From Eledone cirrhosa (lineage: Eukaryota): a DNA stretch of 64,000 nt. Position 1 is the stretch's first letter. Every line of letters starts with the position of its first letter. Under the pieces are notes generated by a model. It did not search any database. It worked only from the letters and a program-made list of their open reading frames with translations, and had not been told where the DNA came from. The stretch spans positions 77,996,001 to 78,060,000 of the forward strand of contig OZ024742.1 of assembly GCA_964016885.1 (NCBI GenBank). The letters run 5' to 3'. Below, piece after piece: positions 17,825-62,410 of the stretch. The translations under genes and the position numbers were made by a program.

Positions 17825-19019
<1,195 letters not shown>

Positions 19020-19729
19020 TATACATGGTAACTCAGTGCAATTCCTAGATTACTACTACAAACCCAAAGTTCACTCACCACACAAACTTCGTCTGTCCCC
19101 TCTCTACCTATCTCTCTCTACATCCATTACACTCTCTCTCTCGCCTTTGGCCTACCTCCCTCTCAACATCTATGAACCTGCCCTCTGGGGCAATAAATAA
19201 TTCCGACCTTAACTATCAACGCATCTCTCCAAAAGTAACCAGTATAATAAAACCCCTACCATAACATTTTGATTAAGATATCTACAAGTCACTCTCTCCT
19301 ACTTCTCCAACCCCTGCATATCTTTCTTTCTCTCTCCCTCTTCCCTACTTTTCTCTCTTCCTTTTCTACTCTATCTTCCCCAACAACCCCACTTAAGGGT
19401 ATTTACATTGTACATTTTACCATTCTGCTCTGAGGAAACAGTGGTCACAGCATTGGATATTTGAGTTCTGCAAGTACTTGTGAATTTGCACGTAGCATAC
19501 CTAGGCTGCAGTACCACCGTGGAAACACTTGTAAGCACACGGAATAAATTACCTTTTTATGATGTCTACCTGTTATTATTCATTCTTTATATACACTCCG
19601 GAATACTGAAGGATCAGGAACTAAGTTTCTTCAACAATTCTTCCATAACTCGTAGAGTAACCTCTTACCGTACGTCAACCATATCCAGTGTAGTAATTAA
19701 CCATTACTACATCTTGGATAATCCTATAC

Positions 19730-27141: not shown

Positions 27142-27691
27142 GAGAGAGAGAGAGAGAGAAAATGTGTGCAAGCGTGTATAGTTGCGTTCGCCTGTACGAT
27201 TCCCATTCTTAGAGGAATCCTTCCATATGTAACTACCAGTGATTGATACGTATGCTTCCTTGTCTTAAACTGAAGAAATATACATTAATATCACTTACTG
27301 CGAAACCTGAACCCACATAAAAATATTTGACTCCGAACATCTATTTCACCGTTCTTTATATAGGAAACACTTTTATCTCTCAGAACTGAAAACTGCAGTT
27401 ATCGCTGGAGACCATAAGGTAATCATTCACGTCAAGATTCACACATTCACCAATATATAGAAGTACACATAAACACATACATATACAAACACACATATAT
27501 ATATCCATATATACACACCTCCACCCATACATCCATACATACATCTATACATACATACATACATACATACATACATACATACATACATACATACATGCAG
27601 GCATTCAAAGATGCCACATTGGTAAATAGGTAACTAAATACGCACGCATCACACTCATACATACACATATATACATACACACACATACATA

Positions 27692-30600
27692 TCGTGCGCC
27701 GATTTTTCGATACTCGATCTTTCTAATATATTTAGCTCTGGACATAGCTATCCACCAGTTAATTTTATTGCTCATATTTTGTCGATTCTATTGAGTGATG
27801 AATAGCTTTTGTTTTATTTTAACATGTCTACTGAGCACTCTAATTCGATATGTGTATTTCCACATTCACTCGAATTATTTTCGCGGATATAGGGGTCATC
27901 TCCCTTGTCTAATGCCATGTGCGTTTTTCACCGCTAGTTGACTCCTTTGCCGCCAGGATAAAACTCGTTGACGACGTAAACTCCATTCCACTTATTCTAG
28001 TAGGCTTTTATATTTATATGTGAGCTGATAGAGTACTGTCTAAGGATTTACAGAAACCCATGAAGCTAGATTTAACACCTTTCTAGTGGGTCCGGGTATG
28101 ATTTTACATTCATTTAAATTATTGACGTATTGTTTTATTGATATTTTTTATCTGTTTGGCCCGAATCTTCCTTTATCGATTTTAAATCGTATGGTTGATT
28201 GTAGACTTGTTCTATATGTGACGGTATTTTAACGATAGTTATAGCTCTGATTCATCTGAATTATTGAGCCCTCTGCCGCTCATATCGGATTTCGTTTTTC
28301 GTTAACTCGTGCGCCGATTTTTCGATACTCGATCTTTCTAATATATTTAGCTCTGGACATAGCTATCCACCAGTTAATTTTATTGCTCATATTTTGTCGA
28401 TTCTATTGAGTGATGAATAGCTTTTGTTTTATTTTAACATGTCTATTGAGCACTCTAATTCGATATGTGTATTTCCACATTCACTCGAATTATTTTCGCG
28501 GATATAGGGGTCATCTCCCTTGTCTAATGCCATGTGCGTTTTTCACCGCTAGTTGACTCCTTTGCCGCCAGGATAAAACTCGTTGACGACGTAAACTCCA
28601 TTCCACTTATTCTAGTAGGCTTTTATATTTATATGTGAGCTGATAGAGTACTGTCTAAGGATTTACAGAAACCCATGAAGCTAGATTTAACACCTTTCTA
28701 GTGGGTCCGGGTATGATTTTACATTCATTTAAATTATTGACGTATTGTTTTATTGATATTTTTTATCTGTTTGGCCCGAATCTTCCTTTATCGATTTTAA
28801 ATCGTATGGTTGATTGTAGACTTGTTCTATATGTGACGGTATTTTAACGATAGTTATAGCTCTGATTCATCTGAATTATTGAGCCCTCTGCCGCTCATAT
28901 CGGATTTCGTTTTTCGTTAACTCGTGCGCCGATTTTTCGATACTCGATCTTTCTAATATATTTAGCTCTGGACATAGCTATCCACCAGTTAATTTTATTG
29001 CTCATATTTTGTCGATTCTATTGAGTGATGAATAGCTTTTGTTTTATTTTAACATGTCTATTGAGCACTCTAATTCGATATGTGTATTTCCACATTCACT
29101 CGAATTATTTTCGCGGATATAGGGGTCATCTCCCTTGTCTAATGCCATGTGCGTTTTTCACCGCTAGTTGACTCCTTTGCCGCCAGGATAAAACTCGTTG
29201 ACGACGTAAACTCCATTCCACTTATTCTAGTAGGCTTTTATATTTATATGTGAGCTGATAGAGTACTGTCTAAGGATTTACAGAAACCCATGAAGCTAGA
29301 TTTAACACCTTTCTAGTGGGTCCGGGTATGATTTTACATTCATTTAAATTATTGACGTATTGTTTTATTGATATTTTTTATCTGTTTGGCCCGAATCTTC
29401 CTTTATCGATTTTAAATCGTATGGTTGATTGTAGACTTGTTCTATATGTGACGGTATTTTAACGATAGTTATAGCTCTGATTCATCTGAATTATTGAGCC
29501 CTCTGCCGCTCATATCGGATTTCGTTTTTCGTTAACTCGTGCGCCGATTTTTCGATACTCGATCTTTCTAATATATTTAGCTCTGGACATAGCTATCCAC
29601 CAGTTAATTTTATTGCTCATATTTTGTCGATTCTATTGAGTGATGAATAGCTTTTGTTTTATTTTAACATGTCTATTGAGCACTCTAATTCGATATGTGT
29701 ATTTCCACATTCACTCGAATTATTTTCGCGGATATAGGGGTCATCTCCCTTGTCTAATGCCATGTGCGTTTTTCACCGCTAGTTGACTCCTTTGCCGCCA
29801 GGATAAAACTCGTTGACGACGTAAACTCCATTCCACTTATTCTAGTAGGCTTTTATATTTATATGTGAGCTGATAGAGTACTGTCTAAGGATTTACAGAA
29901 ACCCATGAAGCTAGATTTAACACCTTTCTAGTGGGTCCGGGTATGATTTTACATTCATTTAAATTATTGACGTATTGTTTTATTGATATTTTTTATCTGT
30001 TTGGCCCGAATCTTCCTTTATCGATTTTAAATCGTATGGTTGATTGTAGACTTGTTCTATATGTGACGGTATTTTAACGATAGTTATAGCTCTGATTCAT
30101 CTGAATTATTGAGCCCTCTGCCGCTCATATCGGATTTCGTTTTTCGTTAACTCGTGCGCCGATTTTTCGATACTCGATCTTTCTAATATATTTAGCTCTG
30201 GACATAGCTATCCACCAGTTAATTTTATTGCTCATATTTTGTCGATTCTATTGAGTGATGAATAGCTTTTGTTTTATTTTAACATGTCTATTGAGCACTC
30301 TAATTCGATATGTGTATTTCCACATTCACTCGAATTATTTTCGCGGATATAGGGGTCATCTCCCTTGTCTAATGCCATGTGCGTTTTTCACCGCTAGTTG
30401 ACTCCTTTGCCGCCAGGATAAAACTCGTTGACGACGTAAACTCCATTCCACTTATTCTAGTAGGCTTTTATATTTATATGTGAGCTGATAGAGTACTGTC
30501 TAAGGATTTACAGAAACCCATGAAGCTAGATTTAACACCTTTCTAGTGGGTCCGGGTATGATTTTACATTCATTTAAATTATTGACGTATTGTTTTATTG

Positions 30601-33600
30601 ATATTTTTTATCTGTTTGGCCCGAATCTTCCTTTATCGATTTTAAATCGTATGGTTGATTGTAGACTTGTTCTATATGTGACGGTATTTTAACGATAGTT
30701 ATAGCTCTGATTCATCTGAATTATTGAGCCCTCTGCCGCTCATATCGGATTTCGTTTTTCGTTAACTCGTGCGCCGATTTTTCGATACTCGATCTTTCTA
30801 ATATATTTAGCTCTGGACATAGCTATCCACCAGTTAATTTTATTGCTCATATTTTGTCGATTCTATTGAGTGATGAATAGCTTTTGTTTTATTTTAACAT
30901 GTCTATTGAGCACTCTAATTCGATATGTGTATTTCCACATTCACTCGAATTATTTTCGCGGATATAGGGGTCATCTCCCTTGTCTAATGCCATGTGCGTT
31001 TTTCACCGCTAGTTGACTCCTTTGCCGCCAGGATAAAACTCGTTGACGACGTAAACTCCATTCCACTTATTCTAGTAGGCTTTTATATTTATATGTGAGC
31101 TGATAGAGTACTGTCTAAGGATTTACAGAAACCCATGAAGCTAGATTTAACACCTTTCTAGTGGGTCCGGGTATGATTTTACATTCATTTAAATTATTGA
31201 CGTATTGTTTTATTGATATTTTTTATCTGTTTGGCCCGAATCTTCCTTTATCGATTTTAAATCGTATGGTTGATTGTAGACTTGTTCTATATGTGACGGT
31301 ATTTTAACGATAGTTATAGCTCTGATTCATCTGAATTATTGAGCCCTCTGCCGCTCATATCGGATTTCGTTTTTCGTTAACTCGTGCGCCGATTTTTCGA
31401 TACTCGATCTTTCTAATATATTTAGCTCTGGACATAGCTATCCACCAGTTAATTTTATTGCTCATATTTTGTCGATTCTATTGAGTGATGAATAGCTTTT
31501 GTTTTATTTTAACATGTCTATTGAGCACTCTAATTCGATATGTGTATTTCCACATTCACTCGAATTATTTTCGCGGATATAGGGGTCATCTCCCTTGTCT
31601 AATGCCATGTGCGTTTTTCACCGCTAGTTGACTCCTTTGCCGCCAGGATAAAACTCGTTGACGACGTAAACTCCATTCCACTTATTCTAGTAGGCTTTTA
31701 TATTTATATGTGAGCTGATAGAGTACTGTCTAAGGATTTACAGAAACCCATGAAGCTAGATTTAACACCTTTCTAGTGGGTCCGGGTATGATTTTACATT
31801 CATTTAAATTATTGACGTATTGTTTTATTGATATTTTTTATCTGTTTGGCCCGAATCTTCCTTTATCGATTTTAAATCGTATGGTTGATTGTAGACTTGT
31901 TCTATATGTGACGGTATTTTAACGATAGTTATAGCTCTGATTCATCTGAATTATTGAGCCCTCTGCCGCTCATATCGGATTTCGTTTTTCGTTAACTCGT
32001 GCGCCGATTTTTCGATACTCGATCTTTCTAATATATTTAGCTCTGGACATAGCTATCCACCAGTTAATTTTATTGCTCATATTTTGTCGATTCTATTGAG
32101 TGATGAATAGCTTTTGTTTTATTTTAACATGTCTATTGAGCACTCTAATTCGATATGTGTATTTCCACATTCACTCGAATTATTTTCGCGGATATAGGGG
32201 TCATCTCCCTTGTCTAATGCCATGTGCGTTTTTCACCGCTAGTTGACTCCTTTGCCGCCAGGATAAAACTCGTTGACGACGTAAACTCCATTCCACTTAT
32301 TCTAGTAGGCTTTTATATTTATATGTGAGCTGATAGAGTACTGTCTAAGGATTTACAGAAACCCATGAAGCTAGATTTAACACCTTTCTAGTGGGTCCGG
32401 GTATGATTTTACATTCATTTAAATTATTGACGTATTGTTTTATTGATATTTTTTATCTGTTTGGCCCGAATCTTCCTTTATCGATTTTAAATCGTATGGT
32501 TGATTGTAGACTTGTTCTATATGTGACGGTATTTTAACGATAGTTATAGCTCTGATTCATCTGAATTATTGAGCCCTCTGCCGCTCATATCGGATTTCGT
32601 TTTTCGTTAACTCGTGCGCCGATTTTTCGATACTCGATCTTTCTAATATATTTAGCTCTGGACATAGCTATCCACCAGTTAATTTTATTGCTCATATTTT
32701 GTCGATTCTATTGAGTGATGAATAGCTTTTGTTTTATTTTAACATGTCTATTGAGCACTCTAATTCGATATGTGTATTTCCACATTCACTCGAATTATTT
32801 TCGCGGATATAGGGGTCATCTCCCTTGTCTAATGCCATGTGCGTTTTTCACCGCTAGTTGACTCCTTTGCCGCCAGGATAAAACTCGTTGACGACGTAAA
32901 CTCCATTCCACTTATTCTAGTAGGCTTTTATATTTATATGTGAGCTGATAGAGTACTGTCTAAGGATTTACAGAAACCCATGAAGCTAGATTTAACACCT
33001 TTCTAGTGGGTCCGGGTATGATTTTACATTCATTTAAATTATTGACGTATTGTTTTATTGATATTTTTTATCTGTTTGGCCCGAATCTTCCTTTATCGAT
33101 TTTAAATCGTATGGTTGATTGTAGACTTGTTCTATATGTGACGGTATTTTAACGATAGTTATAGCTCTGATTCATCTGAATTATTGAGCCCTCTGCCGCT
33201 CATATCGGATTTCGTTTTTCGTTAACTCGTGCGCCGATTTTTCGATACTCGATCTTTCTAATATATTTAGCTCTGGACATAGCTATCCACCAGTTAATTT
33301 TATTGCTCATATTTTGTCGATTCTATTGAGTGATGAATAGCTTTTGTTTTATTTTAACATGTCTATTGAGCACTCTAATTCGATATGTGTATTTCCACAT
33401 TCACTCGAATTATTTTCGCGGATATAGGGGTCATCTCCCTTGTCTAATGCCATGTGCGTTTTTCACCGCTAGTTGACTCCTTTGCCGCCAGGATAAAACT
33501 CGTTGACGACGTAAACTCCATTCCACTTATTCTAGTAGGCTTTTATATTTATATGTGAGCTGATAGAGTACTGTCTAAGGATTTACAGAAACCCATGAAG

Positions 33601-33869
33601 CTAGATTTAACACCTTTCTAGTGGGTCCGGGTATGATTTTACATTCATTTAAATTATTGACGTATTGTTTTATTGATATTTTTTATCTGTTTGGCCCGAA
33701 TCTTCCTTTATCGATTTTAAATCGTATGGTTGATTGTAGACTTGTTCTATATGTGACGGTATTTTAACGATAGTTATAGCTCTGATTCATCTGAATTATT
33801 GAGCCCTCTGCCGCTCATATCGGATTTCGTTTTTCGTTAACTCGTGCGCCGATTTTTCGATACTCGATC

Positions 33870-33881
<12 letters not shown>
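27692..33881 (+). repeat. Tandem array of ten 615-bp units plus a 40-bp partial unit; retrozyme-like multimer
   Basis: tcgtgcgccgatttttcga recurs at 27692 + 615n up to 33842. Units look identical except C vs T at 27831. Flanked by CA/TA microsatellite, with no ORF of 60 aa or more. Confidence 0.97.
27963..28097 (+). ncRNA. Variant type I hammerhead ribozyme, repeated in every 615-bp unit
   Basis: actcg-TTGACGA(27968-74)-cgtaaa...tttaca-GAAA(28053-56)-ccca...ctaga/tctag...tggg-TC(28092)-cgggt. Stem I 5 bp, stem II about 78 nt, stem III 5+5 bp. Deviations are C3U and a C-A closing pair in stem II. Confidence 0.7.
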
Positions 33882-33914
<33 letters not shown>

Positions 33915-49693: not shown

Positions 49694-50703
49694 GGGGATT
49701 CCTTTCTTTGTTTCTGTGCCTCTCCTTTGTTCTGTCCTACGCCATTTTGTTTCTGTGTGTGTGGTGTGTGCTCAGTCTGCGCATGCGCCACATCCGGGTG
49801 CCTGTGTGTGTTTATGTTCATTTATTTATTTGTTTATTTACATGTTACTGGTTGGTTGTTTGTTCTATTTGTGTGTTTTCATTTTGTCCTTAATTGTAAG
49901 TTGTGATGTTGCTGTTCCACTCATATTTTCTATTTAATTTTGGTTGTAATTCTTTTATGTTTATTGCCTCTGTAATTTGTCTAAACATTGCGTCTTTTCT
50001 GTGTGTAGATTCTATTTTTATTTCTATGTTCTCTAATTTACCCTTGTGTTCTGTTTTAGCATGTTGGTAGAGTACAGATGATTCTTTACTATCTTGAAGG
50101 TTTCGCCAGTGTTCATTTATCCGTTCCCCTACACTACGAGCTGTCTCACCTATGTACACTATATTTTTGTCTCTACATTGTCCTTCAGTACATCTTATGC
50201 TATACACTACATTTCTAGTTTTACAGTTAATATTGGGGCTTATTTTACAGGTTATACATTTCTTATCTATACATGAGGGTCTTTGGAGAGGGTATGTCTT
50301 GCTAATAAGTGTTTTTACGGAGGTACCTGGTCTTTCTACTATCTTAATATTGAGTTTATGTTTATTTAGGGCCCTTCTAAATTTGTAAGCTAATTCACCT
50401 CTAGGGGTTGTATCGATGAACATTACACTCTGGTAATTATTACAACCAAAATTAAATAGAAAATATGAGTGGAACAGCAACATCACAACTTACAATTAAG
50501 GACAAAATGAAAACACACACACACATAGAACAAACAACCAGCCAGTAACATGTAAATAAACAAATAAATAAATAAATGAACATAAACACACACAGACACC
50601 CAGATGTGGCGCATGCGCAGACTGAGCACACAATACACACACAGAAACAAAATGGCGTAGGACAGAACAAAGGAGAGGCACAGAAACAGAGAAAGGAATC
50701 CCC

Positions 50704-50989: not shown

Positions 50990-53965
50990 TAATAAATTTG
51001 AAGACTAAAATCCAAAGAGGGCTCGATAAGGATAAATATATATCAAATATATAAGAACCGTAGAGCAAATATTTATTAAAATAACAAATTAAAGTTTAAG
51101 CAAAGAATCGCTGCTTTCACCCTTAACGGGTCAATCTGTAAACGCAAAAGTGGATATTTCAAAAACCGTTGCAACCGGAGGAAGACAGGAAGACGATATT
51201 TTGGTTCGTGGTAACGTTCTCTGGCAAAGAACAGGAAAAAACGAATATAATACGTCATTAATAGGAGCGGTGAAAAACAATTACAGAACCACGTTTATGG
51301 TATAAAAGAAGTCGTAGACTAATGTTCTCTTAGGTGGTTCATAGAGACGTTCTCTGGCAATGAACAGAAAAAACGAAGATAATACGTCATATGTGGAGCG
51401 TGGAGGACAATTGCACGAAAAGACAAAACACGTAAATGGTATAGCTGAAGTCGTAGACTAAAATTCTAACTAGGAAACCGAATGAATCTCCGCTTGAGAG
51501 TTAAGAATAAAGTAAAAAATACAATACAGAGGTAATAGAAATTAAATAAATACATACACGCATTCAAAAACGTACATACACAAGCATACGCGAAAACACT
51601 TGCCATAGGTATACAAAACCACGCACATATAAATATGTGTGTGTGTGTGTGCGTGTATACAAATAAATAAATAATTAAATAAACGTATATAAATAAATAA
51701 ATACGTACATAACAGGCGCACAAGCATACCTACATGTAAATACACAAATGTTCTGAGACGCACGTCAACCAAAACATGACTACACATATACACACACCTT
51801 ACATACGTACGAACCTGCATACTCACACAGACGCAAAACTCCCGTATACACATAACCAAACCAAATGTACCAGAAATAAAATTATACGCCATAACATATA
51901 CAATCAAATATACGTACGAGAAAGTATACGTACTTTCACAAAACATACAGGTAATATATACTTACCTAAGCGAATAAGTAATGGTATAAACAAAACATAT
52001 ACTTAGCTACCGCATCAAGCCGTAAATTATCCACGTATAGATCGTACTATCCGTTAGGGTATAACGTGGGGCTGTAATACAGGAAAGTTTGGTGCAATTT
52101 ATGTTTACAAGCCGAAATTGCCTCAGATTTTTTGTTTAAGATGTGGTCTGTGGCGTAGAGTATTTCCAGGGCCTCAGCGGCGCAGAGGTCACATGGTCTT
52201 TTATTTCCGTTATACGATCTAGCCCTAGCTAGGATCTCCCAGTGTACCTTATATTGGGTGTGGTTGTCTTTTAGACTCCAGATATAAGCTGAAAGTGACG
52301 TCATATTCATTCTTAGAGGGTAACGAAAAGAATGGGTATGCATGTAAAGACGCTGCTTGAATCTATTGGCGGTTAACCCTATGTAGGCACTACGGGACGT
52401 GGGTGTTTCAACCTTACATTTGTAGACAATGTTACTAGAGAGGCATTTCCCGGATAGGGGGCAATCAACCCGATTCCTACAATTACAGTTAGTACTACCT
52501 ACAGGGTTGCACGTGTTCTTACGGCTAGGTAGTTTAGCTAAATTTGAAGCTGTGATGTTATGTGCAAGGTTAGGAGTCGTAGAGTAAGAAATGTTAATAG
52601 TATTTCTCTTAAAAATTTTACTATATCTATGTGTAGGGGGAAAATGCTTCGTAAAAAGGGAAAGAAAGATCTTAGCTAAAGGTGTAGCCACCTCCATATT
52701 ATATGGTGGGTTATACCAACAAATGCGACGGGGTCTATTTCTTCTAGGTCTATTTTCGTACTCTGTATATGCTACCTTATCGACAAATCCACTCCGAGCA
52801 AGAGCTTCATTGTAATCAGTGGAATGGTCCTTGAAAATATGCTCGTTAGTAGATAGACGGGAAAGCATCAACGAGACGTTTCTTACCAGGTTCTTGGTTA
52901 TGCTGGCAGGATGGTTGGAATGCTTACTTATCTAATTCGGCGTTCTATACGGGTTATACAACCCATTCGATGAATTGAGGGTAACGTCGAGGTAATTAAC
53001 GACCGAGAGATTGGCCTCAACCTGTATAGAGAGGTTGAAGCCTTTAAAGAAGGCTGTGAGTTCTTTTCTGAACCTGTCGCAAGCACGAGGTCCGCACTTA
53101 GTCATGGTCAAAAGACCATCATCACGGTACAAGCCACCGCCCGCGTTGGGGAATTCGTCCTTGATAGAGAAAAGAAGGAAAAGGCCGATAAGATCAGTCA
53201 CCTCCGCAGAATCGCTGGCGTCCATACTCACGTCGAATGGGGTACTATTGGATTTTTTAATCCAAATAGAGTCGTCGAAATTAATCACCGACTTACGGGC
53301 ATTGAGGATGACATCAACTTCGAAATCCTTAACCACTGTGAGCGTTTTAGCGAAATTGATAGCTCTAAGGAGAAGTGGTAAAGTGATGGAGGATTAGTAA
53401 TTGTTGATGTCGAATTGGATAAAACGGCAATGTTCCTTGTTGCATATGCCGTTGAACCAATCAATAACGCGAAAGAATTGTTCCACAGTGCAAGAGGGGC
53501 TAAAATTCTAACTAGGAAACCGAATGATTCTCCGCTTCAGAGTTAAGAATAAAGTAAATCAAATACAATACAGAGGTAATTGAAATTAAATAAATACATA
53601 CACGCATCCAAATAGGGTCATACACAAGCATACGCGAAAACACTCGCCATAGGTATACAAAACCACGCACATATAAATATGTGTGTGTGTGTGTGTGTGT
53701 GTGTGAGTGTATACAAATAAATAAGGAATTAAATAAACTTATATAAATAAATGAATACGTATATAACAAGTGCAAACACATACCTACATGTAAATACACA
53801 AAAGTTCCAAGACGTACATCAACCAAAAAATGAAGTAGACATATACACACACACACGTACGAACCCGCATACTCAGACAGACGCAAAACTCCCGTATACA
53901 CTTAACCAAAATATATAAAAATATATACCAGAATATATAAAAATATACGCCATAACATATACATA
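50990..53965 (-). mobile_element. Naiad-type PLE in partial-tandem arrangement (direct pLTR segments)
   Basis: RT and GIY-YIG at 53490-52047. Segment 51461-~51900 is repeated directly at 53503-~53960. A roughly 135-bp internal duplication lies at 51213/51347. Confidence 0.92.
52047..53490 (-). pseudogene. PLE reverse transcriptase + CxCx5C linker + GIY-YIG endonuclease, 5'-truncated with stops
   Basis: FIQFDINNY*, PFDVSMDASDSAEVTDLIG, GLYRDDGL, VNYLDVTLN, SNHP, CNCRNRVDCPLSGKC, IVYKC...YIGLT, CDLC...E, LNKKSE...CKH. Confidence 0.92.
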
Positions 53966-56686
53966 TATTATTATTATTGTTGTTATTCCTTGAATCTCAG
54001 TCATTGATGTTGGTTAACTGGAAAGTCCGTTGGATTGAATATCAAGCCACTACCTGCAGCCTCAGATATTCAGGACGTATCGGAGGGTTCTTGCTGTTCC
54101 AAGCAAGCATGCCTTTTGAAGCGTTCCAAAAAGCGCGAAGGGGCCGATTTTCTTTAACCATCCCTGGAAACTTTTGGAGATAGTCCCCAGTGCGCCTATG
54201 ACAATCGGGATCACTTTGACTTCATGGCAGTTCCAAATCCTTTTCACCTCCCACTTTAGGTCCTGGTATCGGTTAATTTTCTCCCTCTCCTTCTCTTGCA
54301 CTCTCGTGTCGAACGGGCAGGCCACATCCACAATCAGACACGATCTTTTTTCTTTGTCCACAACCACCAGGTCAGGTCTATTGTGTTCCAGTTTTTTGTC
54401 CGTCTGTATCCTAAAATCCCACAGCACCTTCACCTGATTCTTCTCCATCACCGCCTCTGGCCTATGCTCATACCATTTCTCAGAATGTGGTAAATTGTTT
54501 ACTTTGCACAGGTGCCAGTGGATCACCCTGCCCATCACATCGTGTCTCCAGCCCTTATAGTGGGTCTGGGCTAGGTGTTTACACTCGGACACAATGTGAG
54601 CCACAGTCTCCTCTCTCTCTCCACAGATCCTGCACAGTGGGCTAGCCTCCTCCTTGTAGATATGGTGCTTCAACCACTTCGTTTTGAGGGCCTGCTCCTG
54701 CGCAGCCATTAGCATTCCTTCTGTAGCCTTTTTGAGGTCTCCTCTTCTCAACCAGTTCCATGTCTGTGGATCTCTAAATTCAGTTTTCTCAAAGAAGGTA
54801 CTATGAAGGGATTTTCCCTTAAGGCTGCTCTTCCTCCTTGATGTTATTTCCTCCTTGGACATCCCCTGGCCTACTGTCCCCTCCTTCAGTACAGTTCTGA
54901 GCATTGGCTCCTTACTATAGGTCACGTATTTGTATAGGTTGTTTTTCTCCATCTGAACACAGTCCCCTATGCTGATAAGACCTCTTCCACCCTCAGATCT
55001 CCTTAGGTAGAGTCTATCGACATCACTCCTCTTGTGGAACATGTTGTAGATAGTCAATAGCTTCCTAGTCTTCCTATCCATTTCTTTTTGTTCAGCAACA
55101 TTCCATCTCAGAATTCCCGCACTGTACCTAATAATAGACACAGCTCGGGAATTTACTGCGCTTATGGCATTTCTGCTGTTCAGATGTGACTTCAATACGC
55201 TCCTTACTCTCCGAATGTATTCAGTTCTTAACAATTCCTTCATTTTTTTGTTCTTTATGCCATCAGCCTCCAGAACGCCCAAATACTTGTATCCTTCCTC
55301 AGAGTCAATTTCCTTTATCATCTCACCTGTTGGTATCTGGATCCCGTTACTTCTGCTCAACCTACCCCTCTTCATCACAATGACTCCACATTTACCAATA
55401 CCAAACTGCATACATATATCACTGCTGAAAATACGGACAGTGTCAACAAGCACATCCAACTCCTTCTCACTTTTCCCGAAGAGCTTAAGATCGTCCATGA
55501 AGAGGAGGTGATTGATGGTATGCTCTCCCCTTCCCAACTTGTATCCTGCTCTCACTTTTCGCAGCATAATGGTCAAGGGCATCAGGGCAAGGACAAACAA
55601 CAGAGGGGACAGGCTATCTCCCTGGAAGATACCTCTCTTGATCTTCACGCTTCCCAAGGATACTCCAGTTGATGTCAACTCTGTCTCCCAGGACCCCATA
55701 CTCCTGCCTAGCAACTGTCTGATGTTATCTGCCACCCTGAAGATCTCCAGGCTTTTGGTGATCCAGGAATGAGGCACCATGTCAAATGCCTTTCTGTAGT
55801 CTATCCATCCCATGGCAAGATCAGTGTGTCTCCTCCTGCAATTCCCCATTACCATCTTATCAATAAGTAACTGGTCCTTTGTACCACGTGACTTCTTTCG
55901 GCATCCTTTCTGTTCGTCCGGTAACAAGTTGTTTGTGTGGAGGTGATGGTAGATTTCCTCAGACACAATGCTCGTCAACAGTTTCCACATTACGGACAGA
56001 CATGTGATAGGTCTATAGTTGGTAACATCATTACCCTTGATTCGGTCTTTCATTATCAGAACTGTGGTACCTTTTGTCAACCACTCTGGCACCTCACCCG
56101 ACACCAACCAGTCATTGAACATGGCCGTCAGCTTCGGGTGGAGGGATGTTAAATGTTTAATCCAATACCCCTGCACACCATCTGGGCCTGGTGATTTCCA
56201 GTTGGTTAGTTTTTTGGCCTGCCCCTTAAGAGTTTCAACTGTGATACTCAAATATGTTTGTTGTTGTGCCTGCTCACCGATCTCCCTCTGTACTGTCTCA
56301 ATCCACCCTGCCTGGGCATTGTGTCTAACATCCTGCTCCCATATTCCTCTCCAGAATGTTTTAGTTTGCTCCGCCCCAGGGATCAAGTCGTTGCCTCTTT
56401 CTTTCCCCTCAAGCTGTCCAAACAGCATCTTCTGGTTGTTGTCGAACATGCGGTTCTGTTTATACTGACTGACTCTGTTCTCGTATCGCCTGATTTTTGC
56501 ACTCTTTGCTACAATGCGTTGCTTCAGTTCCTCTATGATAATATTTAGCTTTTTCCTCCTAGTTTTGTATTTTATTTCCAGTCTATTTTTAGTGCCTATG
56601 TTTTTTAGTGTCCCATTCAGTAGTGACTCAAGCTTTCCTATGTCATTTCTCATTTCCCTGATTTGCCCACTCAGTCGCTTCTTCCA

Positions 56687-56687
<1 letters not shown>
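53966..56687 (-). mobile_element. R4/Dong-clade LINE, 5'-truncated young copy in (TAA)n
   Basis: Intact ORF, about 80-bp 3' UTR, TAA-type tail at 53966-53985, and 5' junction directly into (ATT)n at 56688-56735. Confidence 0.95.

Positions 56688-56689
<2 letters not shown>
54062..56689 (-). CDS. Reverse transcriptase - CCHC zinc knuckle - restriction-like (REL) endonuclease, 875 aa, N-terminally truncated
   Basis: [36 protein letters not shown]; CRICGEREETVAHIVSEC; RHD; RPDLVVVDK...VDVACP...EKINRY. Confidence 0.95.
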
Positions 56690-56735
<46 letters not shown>

Positions 56736-56941
56736 GGTCTAAGCGGACGTATTTTGCTCGCTCACAATAAGTCGCTTTATTTCCCTGTTTAAATTAGTTG
56801 TTGTTAAATATTTCTTGTTGTGTAAGGGATATAAGCCCTTAGACTTTGTCCCGTGAAGGGGAAAGTATAATATTTGGGCCTTTTGGCCCAAATATTTGAA
56901 CTTTATTTTACATGTTAAAAAATTTACGAAGAAAAAAAAAC

Positions 56942-58927: not shown

Positions 58928-58964
58928 GTAAACCTTCCTCTCTCTCTCTGTTTAACCTGCCAAC

Positions 58965-61900
58965 ATGGCCGTATTAAGAGTAGGATGTTTAAATGTTCGA
59001 GGCCTGGGATCGTCCTGGAAGCAGGGTCACCTGCTCAACGACCTCAGGTCTATAGAAATGGATGTAATTGCAATCAGCGAGACCAGGATTTCCGACACGC
59101 GCGCACTAGCCCCCATTTTCGACGACTATCAGATCTTTCAGATCTTTGCATCTGTTAGCCGCCCGGAAATGGGGGGCGGGGTGGCAGTGCTGTTTAGGAA
59201 AGGCCTGGATCTCGAGGTAAGGTCGATCTTCCGGGACCCGGACGGGAAGTTGGTGGTCCTGGACGTGAAAAATAATGAAGGTGGTGCCTTTAGACTGGTG
59301 GCCGTCTATGCTCCTACTGGGGCAGGACGGCCGGACTTCTTTAGACGCCTGGAAGCCTTTCTGGGTACGTCTCGCCCTTTTCTGTTAGTGGGTGACTGGA
59401 ACGGCATCTTAGACGCACGCTGGGACTGTGTGGGAGTATCCGATAGGAGCGGGGGGTGCAAAAGTCTCAAGAACCTGATCAGCCAGTTCCAACTGTCTGA
59501 CAGGTACCGACTAGATTTCCCTAATGCGCCAGTGTGGACCTGGGCTAACCGCATAGGGTCATCTAGATCGTATATAGACAGGATATTCATTAGGAAAATA
59601 GACAGAAATAGTGTAAGCTGTCCACGTTTTGAAACGGTCGCCTATTCAGATCACAAGTTTGTGATCTGTATGGTCCACCTAGATAAGAGGCGTAGGTTAG
59701 GACCTGGTTACTGGAAGCTAAACATGTCATTTCCGGCACGTAAGGCTTACAGGGACCAGGTCAACAATTTAGTTAAGAAAAAGTTGACAGGGGGAGTCGT
59801 CAACAATAGATGGTGGGGGGGGGGGGGCTCTCAAAAGAGAGATTAGAGTAATGTCGATAGAGTTTAGCAAAAAGTAGCATTAGAGAAAAATAGAAAGGGG
59901 TGGGAGTTGGTAGATAAGTTAGACGAGGCTTTTGGTAGTAGCATTGCAACTGATGTGCTAGCGGCAAGAATGGCATCAGACCATTTCTTCAATGCGAAAC
60001 ACGAAGGTTGCATTGTCCGAGCTAAGGCGCGTGCTCTGAGAAACGAGGGCACCAAAGCTGTTCGATGGACCCGCGTGGCAGAGGCGCAGCGTGGTAACAA
60101 AACCACGATTCGGTCTTGACGGACCGAGACGGGCACGAGCTGAGCGATTCCAAGAGGATGTGTGAGGCCTTTCGCCAACATTTTGCTCGGTTGTTCGGGG
60201 GAAGTGGCGGGTCAGAGATGGTGGCGGACTTCAGTCCCTACCTCGATGGCTTGCCGCAACTCTCGACGGCTGATGCTGGGCGCTGCGAAAGGCCAATTAC
60301 TTCAGCCGAGATTCAGGATGCCCTTGTAGGCTGCATGAGGCGCAAGTCAACCGGTTTGGATGGTCTGCCCTACGAGTTTTACGTAAATATGCCAGACTTG
60401 TTCTCCAATCTCCTCGAAGCCTTCTACTGCAACTGGCACCAAAACGGGAGTATTCCCAGTTCTGTGAGTCGGGGCGTAGTGTCGCTGATAAGGAAAGACG
60501 AGAACAAGAGGGACACATTAGATAATTTCTGGCCCATAACTCTGCTCAACACAGAATTTAAGATTTTGGCCAGGGTGTTAGCGAAGAGGTTGGCGTTTGT
60601 CGTCGGGCATTTGGTTGGGGAGGCGCAAACTTGCGCAATCCCAACCAGGTCCATACACGACAACCTCCACCTAATGCAATACATCATAGAGAGGGTAGGG
60701 TGTAAACCTGGCTTCGGTGGGGCTCTGATCAATTTAGATCAATTGAAAGCATTCGATAGGGTCTACCATCGGTACCTGGAGGCTGTCCTCAGGGCGGCTG
60801 GCTTCGGCCCCGTCTTCAGAGGCTGGATCGCTGCAATGCACAGTGGAACCTGCTCGATGTTCAAAATTAATGGCCACCTCTCGGAACCGTTTCAGGTCTC
60901 CCGATCGGTCCGTCAAGTGTGCCCTCTCTCCTGCCTTCTGTACGTATTGACTCTCGAGCCTTTACTGCGGAAGCTAGAGCTGTTGCAGGGCATCCCGCTC
61001 GAAACGGGACGCGGAAAGGCTGTGTCGGCTTATGCGGACGACATCACCGTGATGGTGTCGGACACCTCAGAAATCGAGGTGGTCGGCAACTTATTGGAGG
61101 ACTATGAAAGGTTGACCGGAGCAAAACTTAACCCGGAATAGTCAGTAGGGTTGCAACTCGGCACCTGGAGAGACAAGTCCATGCCGTCCAACAGCGTCGT
61201 TAGGCGCTGGACGGACAGACCGGTAAAGTTGCTAGGGGTTTGGTTCGGGCCAGACCTCCAGGTGGATAAGAATTAGGACGAGGTGACGGGCAGGGTAATC
61301 AGTCTCACCCAGAAATGGGCTGGGATGAAGCTATCTCTGAAATGTCGGGCGGAGGTGGCGAAAAGGTACATCGCGTCCGTCATCTACTACCGTCTGACTG
61401 TCGTCCCTTGCCCCCGTTCGCGTCTCGCCATCTTGGAGCGGCTCCTCTTCAAATTCTTGTGGAGGGGTCAGGTTCCGCTGGTGAGGCGGTCCATCTGCTG
61501 CCAGCACCCTCTACGTGGAGGGCTGGGCATGCCGTGGTTAATGATGCACTGAGGCTGCGGCATCTCCAGATATTCTGCCTAAACGGTGAACAGGTGTGGT
61601 CGCCGTTTGTCAGACGGCCCTTTCCGCAGCTCGTTTCTTTGACTGAGTTGCAGTCCTGGGTCAAGAAGAGACCGAGACTGGGTGACTGGCATCTGAAATG
61701 TTGCCAGGCACTCACTGCCCTCTACCAGGCGGGCAATTCGGTCAGTGGAACTTCCACTCTCGAGTTCTATAGAGGATTAGTGGTGGGCAAGTGCGACGCC
61801 GCACTCGGAGAGGCTATGGGAGTCAACGAAGTCGAACTAACCAGTCTGTACAGGAGGACTTTCGAGCCGGGGACGATGGATAATTTCCAAAAATCCCTCG

Positions 61901-62410
61901 CTTGGCAGTGCTACGGGGGGGGGGGGGGGGGCACTGCCGGTTCGAGATAAACTCTACAGGCACGGAAGTGCTGTCTGACGGACCTGTCCGAGATGCGCGC
62001 AGAGCCACGAAACCGTTCTGCACGCACTCGTCCAGTGTCCGTGCATTACTGACTAGTGGAGTTATGTTGAACAGCTGTTGTCGCGTGTAGAACGGATCCG
62101 GCTATCGGCCGAGTCCATAGTGAAGATCGACCTGCCACCTTCTTTTGGCCAGGCAGGGCAGGCATTTTCCTCTGTCTGGTGGCAGTAGCGAAAGAGGTTG
62201 TATGGTGGACGAGGTTGAAAGGACTGAAGACAGACACTTTTCTCGTCGGCCAATCCCTCATCAACTGTTTCAAGTTTCACTTGGAAAGGAAGGTGAGGGT
62301 GGAGAGGGAAGTGCTGCCCCCCCCCCCCCCCCAGTACATTTGCTGAAAGGTGGGTGAATGTGGCGAGAGTGGCTCGTGTGAGTGGGCCTACTCTGGTCAT
62401 GCGGCTGTAG
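58965..62410 (+). pseudogene. Tx1-like ORF2: AP endonuclease, reverse transcriptase, CCHC; with frameshifts and stops
   Basis: CLNVRGL, SETR, VYAP, GDWN, IDRIF, SDH, GYWKLN; KSTGLDGLP, PITLLNTEFKILA, KAFDRV, SVRQVCPLS, AYADD; CPRCAQSHETVLHALVQC near 61985-62040. Confidence 0.92.

Follow-up and report, generated by a model that had tools for sequence, protein, structure and literature searches.

The 64,000-nucleotide stretch of Eledone cirrhosa DNA analysed here (assembly GCA_964016885.1, contig OZ024742.1, positions 77,996,001 to 78,060,000 of the forward strand; hereafter the window, in whose own numbering positions are given) carries a tandem array of a 615-bp non-coding repeat, each unit of which contains a variant type I hammerhead. 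This repeat probably spreads as a non-LTR (long terminal repeat) retrozyme, by self-cleavage of its transcripts, formation of an RNA circle and copying by the borrowed reverse transcriptase (RT) of a Penelope-like element (PLE). The retrozyme assignment made in the original prediction, a reading of the sequence alone, agrees with the sequence-level definition of non-LTR retrozymes and is supported genome-wide. The units are repeated head-to-tail, each with a type I hammerhead of variant core; there is no coding or LTR organisation, the GC content is below 50%, and the ends are fixed (3') and random (5'), no separate search having been made for the PBS (primer-binding site) or the PPT (polypurine tract). 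The insertion and its surroundings are as follows.

27692..33881, + strand: whole insertion, ten 615-bp units plus 40 bp (6,190 bp), 5'-truncated, with a fixed 3' end.
33842..33881, + strand: the fixed 3' end (unit positions 1-40), inferred reverse-transcription priming site.
27467..27691, no strand assigned: CA/TA-type microsatellite, left flank of the array.
33876..33901, no strand assigned: (AT)n target microsatellite, overlapping the last bases of the element.

Repeat analysis agreed with the claimed period of exactly 615 bp from 27692 to 33881, in ten units plus 40 bp. The sole substitution in the array, at 27831, distinguishes unit 1 from the other units; nine of the ten copies are identical. 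The unit has a GC content of 36%, and its longest stop-free frame on either strand, with the unit circularised, is just 62 codons, in keeping with the claim that it holds no open reading frame (ORF). The CA/TA microsatellite on one side and the TA microsatellite on the other bear out the proposed insertion into a microsatellite. Two other claims did not stand. The "40-bp terminal redundancy" is no feature: insertions stop at a fixed 3' end, unit position 40, whereas their 5' ends may fall anywhere on the unit, so that the overhang arises because the random 5' end of this insertion is offset from the fixed 3' end. Nor is the monomer larger than usual, since 615 nt lies within the 51-972 bp range of consensus lengths given in bioRxiv 10.64898/2026.07.22.740005. 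ARAGORN found 0 tRNA genes in the repeat, and a tRNA-derived short interspersed element was thereby ruled out.

The unit belongs to a family that is large, old and recently active in a microsatellite-rich animal genome. The Eledone cirrhosa assembly itself (3.0 Gb, 1,796 contigs) was searched with the unit, which gave 353 candidate places; the 21 that were scored were all near-identical arrays, 1.26-8.3 kb long, with 5' ends spread around the unit. In 19 of these the 3' end lay at unit position 40 and ran into (AT)n, and the other 2 met N gaps. In the genome the window's subfamily has 731 occurrences of the exact joint between unit end and (AT)n, an older subfamily 1,463 of its exact 3' junction, and distant subfamilies 3,899 of a motif near the 3' end (internal copies included); the control was 0 in each case. 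We inspected 125 junction loci, namely 95 of the first 100 listed young junctions and 30 older-subfamily junctions. All 125 were 5'-truncated family members, with an identity to the window's unit of 88-100% or about 75-85%, and no linked ORF was found beside them. Relatives at about 62% identity share the same layout and the same (TA)n target. Dispersal over many loci, as in the mobile families of non-LTR retrozymes, and permuted 5' ends, both foreseen in the original prediction, were thus seen genome-wide, for example in the 21 arrays, and the genome-wide data also support its view of the window's array as a recent single insertion. The insertion signature it held to be of PLE type is matched by the end geometry: 5' truncation, partial tandems and a microsatellite target, within which target-site duplications are unreadable. 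The shared 3' end abutting (TA)n, together with scattered 5' ends, suggests a pattern as in target-primed reverse transcription.

The predicted ribozyme recurs in every unit; in unit 1 its parts are placed as follows.

27963..28097, + strand: type I hammerhead variant, recurring every 615 bp (from fold and conservation).
27963-27967 with 28093-28097, + strand: stem I.
27968-27974, + strand: core UUGACGA.
27975, + strand: extra C after the core.
27976-28051, + strand: stem II.
28052, + strand: extra A before GAAA.
28053-28056, + strand: GAAA.
28056-28091, + strand: stem III.
28092..28093 (also 28707, 29322 ... 33627), + strand: predicted self-cleavage site GUC/C (from the fold and a pile-up of 5' ends just downstream).
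28025..28032, + strand: CUGAUAGA box, the core of the earlier reading; inside stem II and unconserved.

Alignment of relatives placed the true 5' core, UUGAN(A/G)A, 57 nt upstream of CUGAUAGA. The core is preceded by ACUCG, which pairs with the CGGGU after the cut site to form stem I, and is followed by one base (A or C); a single A precedes GAAA, and between these two bases lies a stem II of 74-79 nt that opens with G-C. The earlier assignment of one type I hammerhead per unit was therefore right in its GAAA, its stem III and its predicted cut at GUC 28092, and wrong in its 5' core and in stems I and II. For covariation analysis we selected 27 diverse copies among 79 motif haplotypes; near-duplicates were excluded, as were three edge-artefact rows and several rows that were damaged or mis-anchored. 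Under the revised fold 95.2% of 376 cells were paired in this set, with both sides changed in 25 cells, so that the stems are kept in homologues. None of 500 shuffles was as good, although relatedness among the copies may inflate this control, and controls with the fold slid along the alignment reached 18-49% (best 48.5%). Over all 79 unselected rows, every pair of the revised fold was kept in 56-79 of 79. The fold built on CUGAUAGA was rejected: on the same 27 copies it paired 66.1% of cells with 0 compensatory changes, and 491 of 500 shuffles were as good. Stem I of that fold has a single pair beside two mismatches between purines; older subfamilies differ at the base taken as A9, and relatives at about 62% identity lack the box.

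Within the revised core U4, G5, A6, A9, GAAA and UC are invariant, while all four bases occur at position 7 and either A or G at position 8, a pattern as expected of a selected hammerhead core. Three stems surround (C/U)UGAN(G/A)A, GAAA and UH with stem I open, as in type I hammerheads. The deviations from that core are the extra A before G12, U3.G8 in some lineages and C3 with A8 in 2 of the 27 rows. L226 and L240, of a distant subfamily, have C3 with A8, a mismatch where other copies pair, and their lineage possibly carries a weak or dead ribozyme. In the most distant subfamily seen (L257, L272, L284), with a period of about 650, the strands of stem I are CCUG/CAGG and the unit contains a microsatellite directly after the cut site. 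Judged from sequence comparison, the putative ribozyme is conserved across about 40% sequence divergence. Infernal with the Rfam models, named in the original prediction as a check on the hammerhead, gave 0 matches at gathering score in the window and, between 28200 and 29200, just 2 chance-level matches at E<=10; the hammerhead was likely missed because of the long stem II. Hairpin, twister, hepatitis delta virus (HDV)-like and pistol readings were weighed by eye from their motifs and dropped when the hammerhead was identified, and Rfam gave none of them. Pattern matches in IMG/VR (5) and in metagenomes (2) were without the upstream core and look like chance.

Downstream of the cut site lies a second conserved element, a predicted lock on the ribozyme.

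28160..28163, + strand: conserved CCCG, predicted to pair with the 3' strand of stem I (CGGG) and switch the ribozyme off.

In folding calculations, the probability of stem I was about 0.4 when the transcript stopped just past the ribozyme and 0.01 or less once it exceeded position 480, while in longer transcripts CCCG captured CGGG with a probability of 0.8-0.95. Forcing the active fold in the circle had a computed cost of 2.8 kcal/mol. Of 125 distinct CGGG-type copies, 113 carried the downstream CCCG, compared with 3.9% for shuffled sequence; in 2 of 6 CAG-type copies CCTG stood in the blocker's place.

The 5' end was visible in 114 of the 125 junction loci. Twenty-nine of these ends lay at unit positions 400-431, compared with 7 in 368-399 and 1 in 432-463, the 400-431 interval having been set after the first loci were viewed, which tells against the count. 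Sub-unit insertions account for 22 of these ends (of 57; p=3e-14 versus uniform) and longer insertions for 7 (of 57; p=0.03). The median insertion length was 615 nt. Just 3 of the 114 ends fell in the 30-nt bin of the TA-richest internal site (316-325), and therefore microhomology alone does not explain the pile-up. Distant subfamilies repeated it: in 7 of 28 distinct loci the 5' end lay between -2 and +45 relative to the cut (p=0.006; one twice-listed locus counted once and one too short to place omitted). The cut site was crossed by 80 of the 114 insertions, which calls for a circular template, a multimer left uncleaved or a template jump. We infer that the fixed end, 254 nt downstream of the predicted cut site, is the priming site and is distinct from the cut site.

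Array length and clonality were examined in 81 young loci with a full unit (of at least 731), among which 39 arrays had at least 3 copies. The 39 arrays represented 21 array-wide haplotypes, and 10 of them carried variants that were fixed in all their copies and absent from every other of the 81 loci. Thirty of the 39 had no mosaic site, and single-copy variants numbered 42 in 255 copies. Among insertions within 0.6% of the window's haplotype 7 of 10 were at least 4.9 kb, a length reached by 3 of 31 in one older bin and by 1 of 45 in another, beyond 3% (length-age rho -0.41). The arrays thus look born long and clonal, with a circle as the simplest source.

The copying enzyme is probably a Penelope-like RT. 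PLEs ending in (TA)n are abundant in the genome, and PLE fragments in the window and its flanks end straight in (TA)n, some with canonical minimal hammerheads.

52047-53393, - strand: Hydra-clade PLE fragment (also at L281-L283).
18465-19049 and 49890-50489, - strand: 3' ends of two other GIY-YIG PLE families, each followed by a minimal hammerhead abutting (TA)n.

The Hydra-clade family gave 81,970 first-look candidates in the genome, shows several intact 713-aa frames, and has a long 3' untranslated region (UTR) ending in (TA)n. The RWR, DKT and CxCx5C motifs of the 713-aa frames match the Hydra clade, members of which target (TA)n (PMC8557442). A Pfam search of the 713-aa protein gave no match, and its atlas neighbours are RT/GIY-YIG-type eukaryotic clusters. 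No canonical hammerhead was found by regular expression in the 1.7 kb downstream of one Hydra-clade copy. The intact frames are 97.5-98.4% alike, and the family therefore looks older than the newest retrozyme burst. A version of the ribozyme with a shorter stem II was sought in autonomous PLEs and rejected: there were 157 pattern matches against 41 in the control, and the 25 loci read were members of the present family or unrelated, none being shown as a PLE terminus.

In the sequence of events that we propose, transcription would run through an array, and the hammerhead would fold while stem I is free, just after being transcribed, as computation and conservation suggest. Self-cleavage at GUC would divide the array transcripts into monomers of 615 nt. 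The CCCG, 67 nt downstream, would then lock the ribozyme and protect the circle, into which, by analogy with the animal retrozymes of PMC7229834, a host ligase may join the monomers. After a nick in (TA)n by a PLE endonuclease, the RT would start from unit position 40 and lap the circle until it drops off; the resulting arrays would hold about 1-15 near-identical units and share a single 3' end, their 5' ends being random. The end geometry is observed, and the mechanism is our interpretation of it. Linear cleaved RNAs, as templates, would run off after 254 nt or less and give the short class that begins just past the cut, a cause proposed for the observed pile-up. The window's array would be one very recent such event. 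Taken to its full extent, the proposal is tentative and, in our estimate, falls somewhat short of an even chance: the insertions may be a fossil record of rolling-circle target-primed reverse transcription, in which a PLE enzyme, primed at a site within an intact 600-nt circle, laps it up to about 15 times, the circle being made and protected by an undescribed hammerhead whose co-transcriptional off-switch is kept across about 40% divergence.

Several observations weigh against this proposal. Only 1 of the 114 5' ends lies exactly at 402 and 11 start at 414, most ends in the pile-up being 8-25 nt further on, at TA-like joints; stalling of the RT at GC-rich stems therefore fits too, and the pile-up may come either from RNA that physically ends at the cut and is trimmed as far as the following TA-like joint, or from a stall at the ribozyme stems. 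The whole unit folds with only mild stability (z=-1.84, 20 shuffles). Copies with U3.G8, including this array, have an extra base on each side of stem II as well and could be slow or dead ribozymes, and 8 of 9 predicted retrozymes assayed in bioRxiv 10.64898/2026.07.22.740005 failed to cleave. Four of the 6 CAG-type copies, from the subfamily with a microsatellite at that place, had no blocker within 95 nt. Mosaic sites occur in 9 of the 39 arrays, mostly as adjacent runs, and 4 of the 9 carry alleles seen at other loci. One circle could not produce such sites, which would require subsequent exchange, template jumps or multimer templates. When age was measured by nearest-neighbour distance, length showed no significant trend (rho -0.13, p=0.24). 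No ORF-bearing element was found among the family loci inspected, and nhmmer with two profiles gave 0 matches at E<=10 in 27 PLE 3'-UTR rows, drawn from few families and with Naiad and other clades not searched. As no shared PLE sequence was found, the case for PLE mobilisation is built on the shared target and the end geometry.

The alternative that survives best, although we think it unlikely, is the same retrozyme without a circle, in which read-through transcripts of existing arrays anneal by a terminal (UA)n tail to nicked (TA)n and serve as linear templates. Full cleavage would give the short class of 254 nt or less and incomplete cleavage the multimers, with template jumps or local unequal exchange regrowing the arrays. 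This would account directly for the fixed 3' end and the pile-up at 400-431; it also agrees with the predicted block of the ribozyme in long transcripts, the 9 mosaic arrays of 39 and the existence of donors with 13-15 units. However, daughters would be no longer than their donors, whereas 21 haplotypes include long clonal arrays; among the young arrays of the 21 scored, no listed single-copy variant turns up in a second array; and a ribozyme kept across about 40% divergence would merely shorten the templates. That retroinsertions of 1-2 units later grew into satellites through unequal crossing-over, as the discussion of bioRxiv 10.64898/2026.07.22.740005 prefers, is improbable here. Several mosaic patterns are adjacent runs (0011, 11000), as local duplication yields, and the median insertion is one of 615 nt, but the newest lineage holds the longest arrays rather than the shortest, and arrays of 5-13 copies with zero or one difference stand at many loci. 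Rolling-circle DNA elements also yield tandem arrays with one fixed end, and Helitrons and Helentrons are marked by a fixed 5' TC or TT, a 3' hairpin with CTRR and two defined ends. A Helitron- or Helentron-like DNA rolling circle, or reinsertion of circular DNA, with the hammerhead incidental, would share the tandem arrays and the single fixed end. It is largely refuted and very improbable, since the fixed end has no conserved TC/TT start and no fixed CTRR across subfamilies, the other end is random, the RNA fold is conserved with covariation, and the 5' ends track its cut site. That one or two copies were blown up to ten in assembly, as the identity of nine copies at this locus might suggest, is scarcely credible, because arrays elsewhere differ in length and have unique flanks and the single-copy variants at other loci demonstrate that copies were resolved individually.

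Words of the unit were present in 17 public sequencing runs under 14 organism codes; none of the runs listed as containing them was an RNA run, which is evidence in neither direction. In the 7 contig runs examined (X1, X3, X5 and X11-X14) the unit occurred at low depth, about 2-15, as mixed subfamily pieces, and X3 held one 645-nt contig closing on itself. One raw Hi-C run, from the same study as one of the runs with unit words, gave 0 of 12.8 million reads. These occurrences may well be carry-over from the DNA of this organism, and we do not take them as evidence of horizontal spread or independent occurrence.

Some further features were recorded. Like insertions occur in pairs within longer duplicated blocks at L285 (where they are 3.4 kb apart) and at G000:C3:256763465, and at L041 the flank is duplicated at both sides of the array; these are hints of later local duplication. 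The flanks of L045, L046, L073, L113 and L246 contain another abundant (TA)n-targeting element, ending with a GAAA-stem III-UC hammerhead half and a palindromic loop. At least 6 different element ends recur next to TA tracts, which serve as shared landing pads. Two other retroelements lie in the window.

54062-56761, - strand, with a second copy at 752-2472: an 899-aa frame with RT and restriction-like endonuclease, presumably of R4/Dong type (by eye, from motifs).
58956-61950, + strand: a broken RT element, which we take to be an APE-RT long interspersed element (LINE; by eye, from motifs).

For animal retrozymes, copying of a circle has been proposed as the origin of arrays (PMC4209133, PMC7229834), with local unequal crossing-over as the alternative (bioRxiv 10.64898/2026.07.22.740005), and PLE retrotransposition is described as having no in vitro system (PMC8557442). 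The present family offers thousands of divergence-dated insertions, defined sites of priming and of cutting, and a burst of very recent date, and the question of array origin is therefore directly testable in it. Since hammerheads with a long stem II and a U3 core escape Rfam, such elements are probably undercounted.

Like the animal non-LTR retrozymes of PMC7229834 and bioRxiv 10.64898/2026.07.22.740005, the family is non-coding, has GC below 50%, is arranged head-to-tail with one type I hammerhead per unit, is dispersed and co-occurs with PLEs; self-cleavage, circularisation and reverse transcription by a PLE make up the life cycle proposed there. Unlike them, it has a U3-core variant whose stem II spans 74-79 nt and whose stem III is complete, and a dimer would therefore not be needed. 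The monomer of about 580-650 nt exceeds the 170-400 nt of tested retrozyme RNAs while lying within the predicted range. The consulted portions of these two sources held no retrozyme counterpart to the strict (TA)n targeting or to a fixed 3' end 254 nt from the cut. A block of the ribozyme in the full RNA, as predicted here, is reported for plant retrozymes and viroids and, in the portions consulted, not for most animal retrozymes. No homology to PLE pLTRs was found here, whereas 21 of 57 Xenopus retrozyme families matched PLEs, or 24 transposable elements as reported. With the non-autonomous PLE MRC1 of Chlamydomonas and the Hydra and Naiad PLEs (PMC8557442) the family shares 5' truncation and head-to-tail multicopy insertions, and with the PLEs of the same source a microsatellite target ((TA)n for Hydra and Naiad) and the lack of a discernible target-site duplication. 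MRC1-type elements, in contrast, share 3' sequence with an autonomous family, and none such was found for the present family; PLEs typically show inverted 5' copies, of which it has few (L194 alone among 125 junction loci); and Chlamys and Naiad are mostly without hammerheads (PMC8557442). The minimal hammerheads of PLEs (PMC4209133) resemble the present one in U3-A8 core covariation, an unpaired base between 9 and 10.1, a conserved G10.1-C11.1, a short stem I and no obvious loop 1-loop 2 motif. The present one differs from them in the second extra base, between 11.1 and G12, in a stem II about ten times longer, in a long stem III (minimal and palindromic in PLEs) and in tolerating U3.G8 in several subfamilies. 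No description of the second extra base or of the very long stem II was found in those parts of the retrozyme and PLE-hammerhead literature that were consulted. What is new here is the ribozyme variant, its predicted blocker and a population-scale record that separates the priming site from the cut site.

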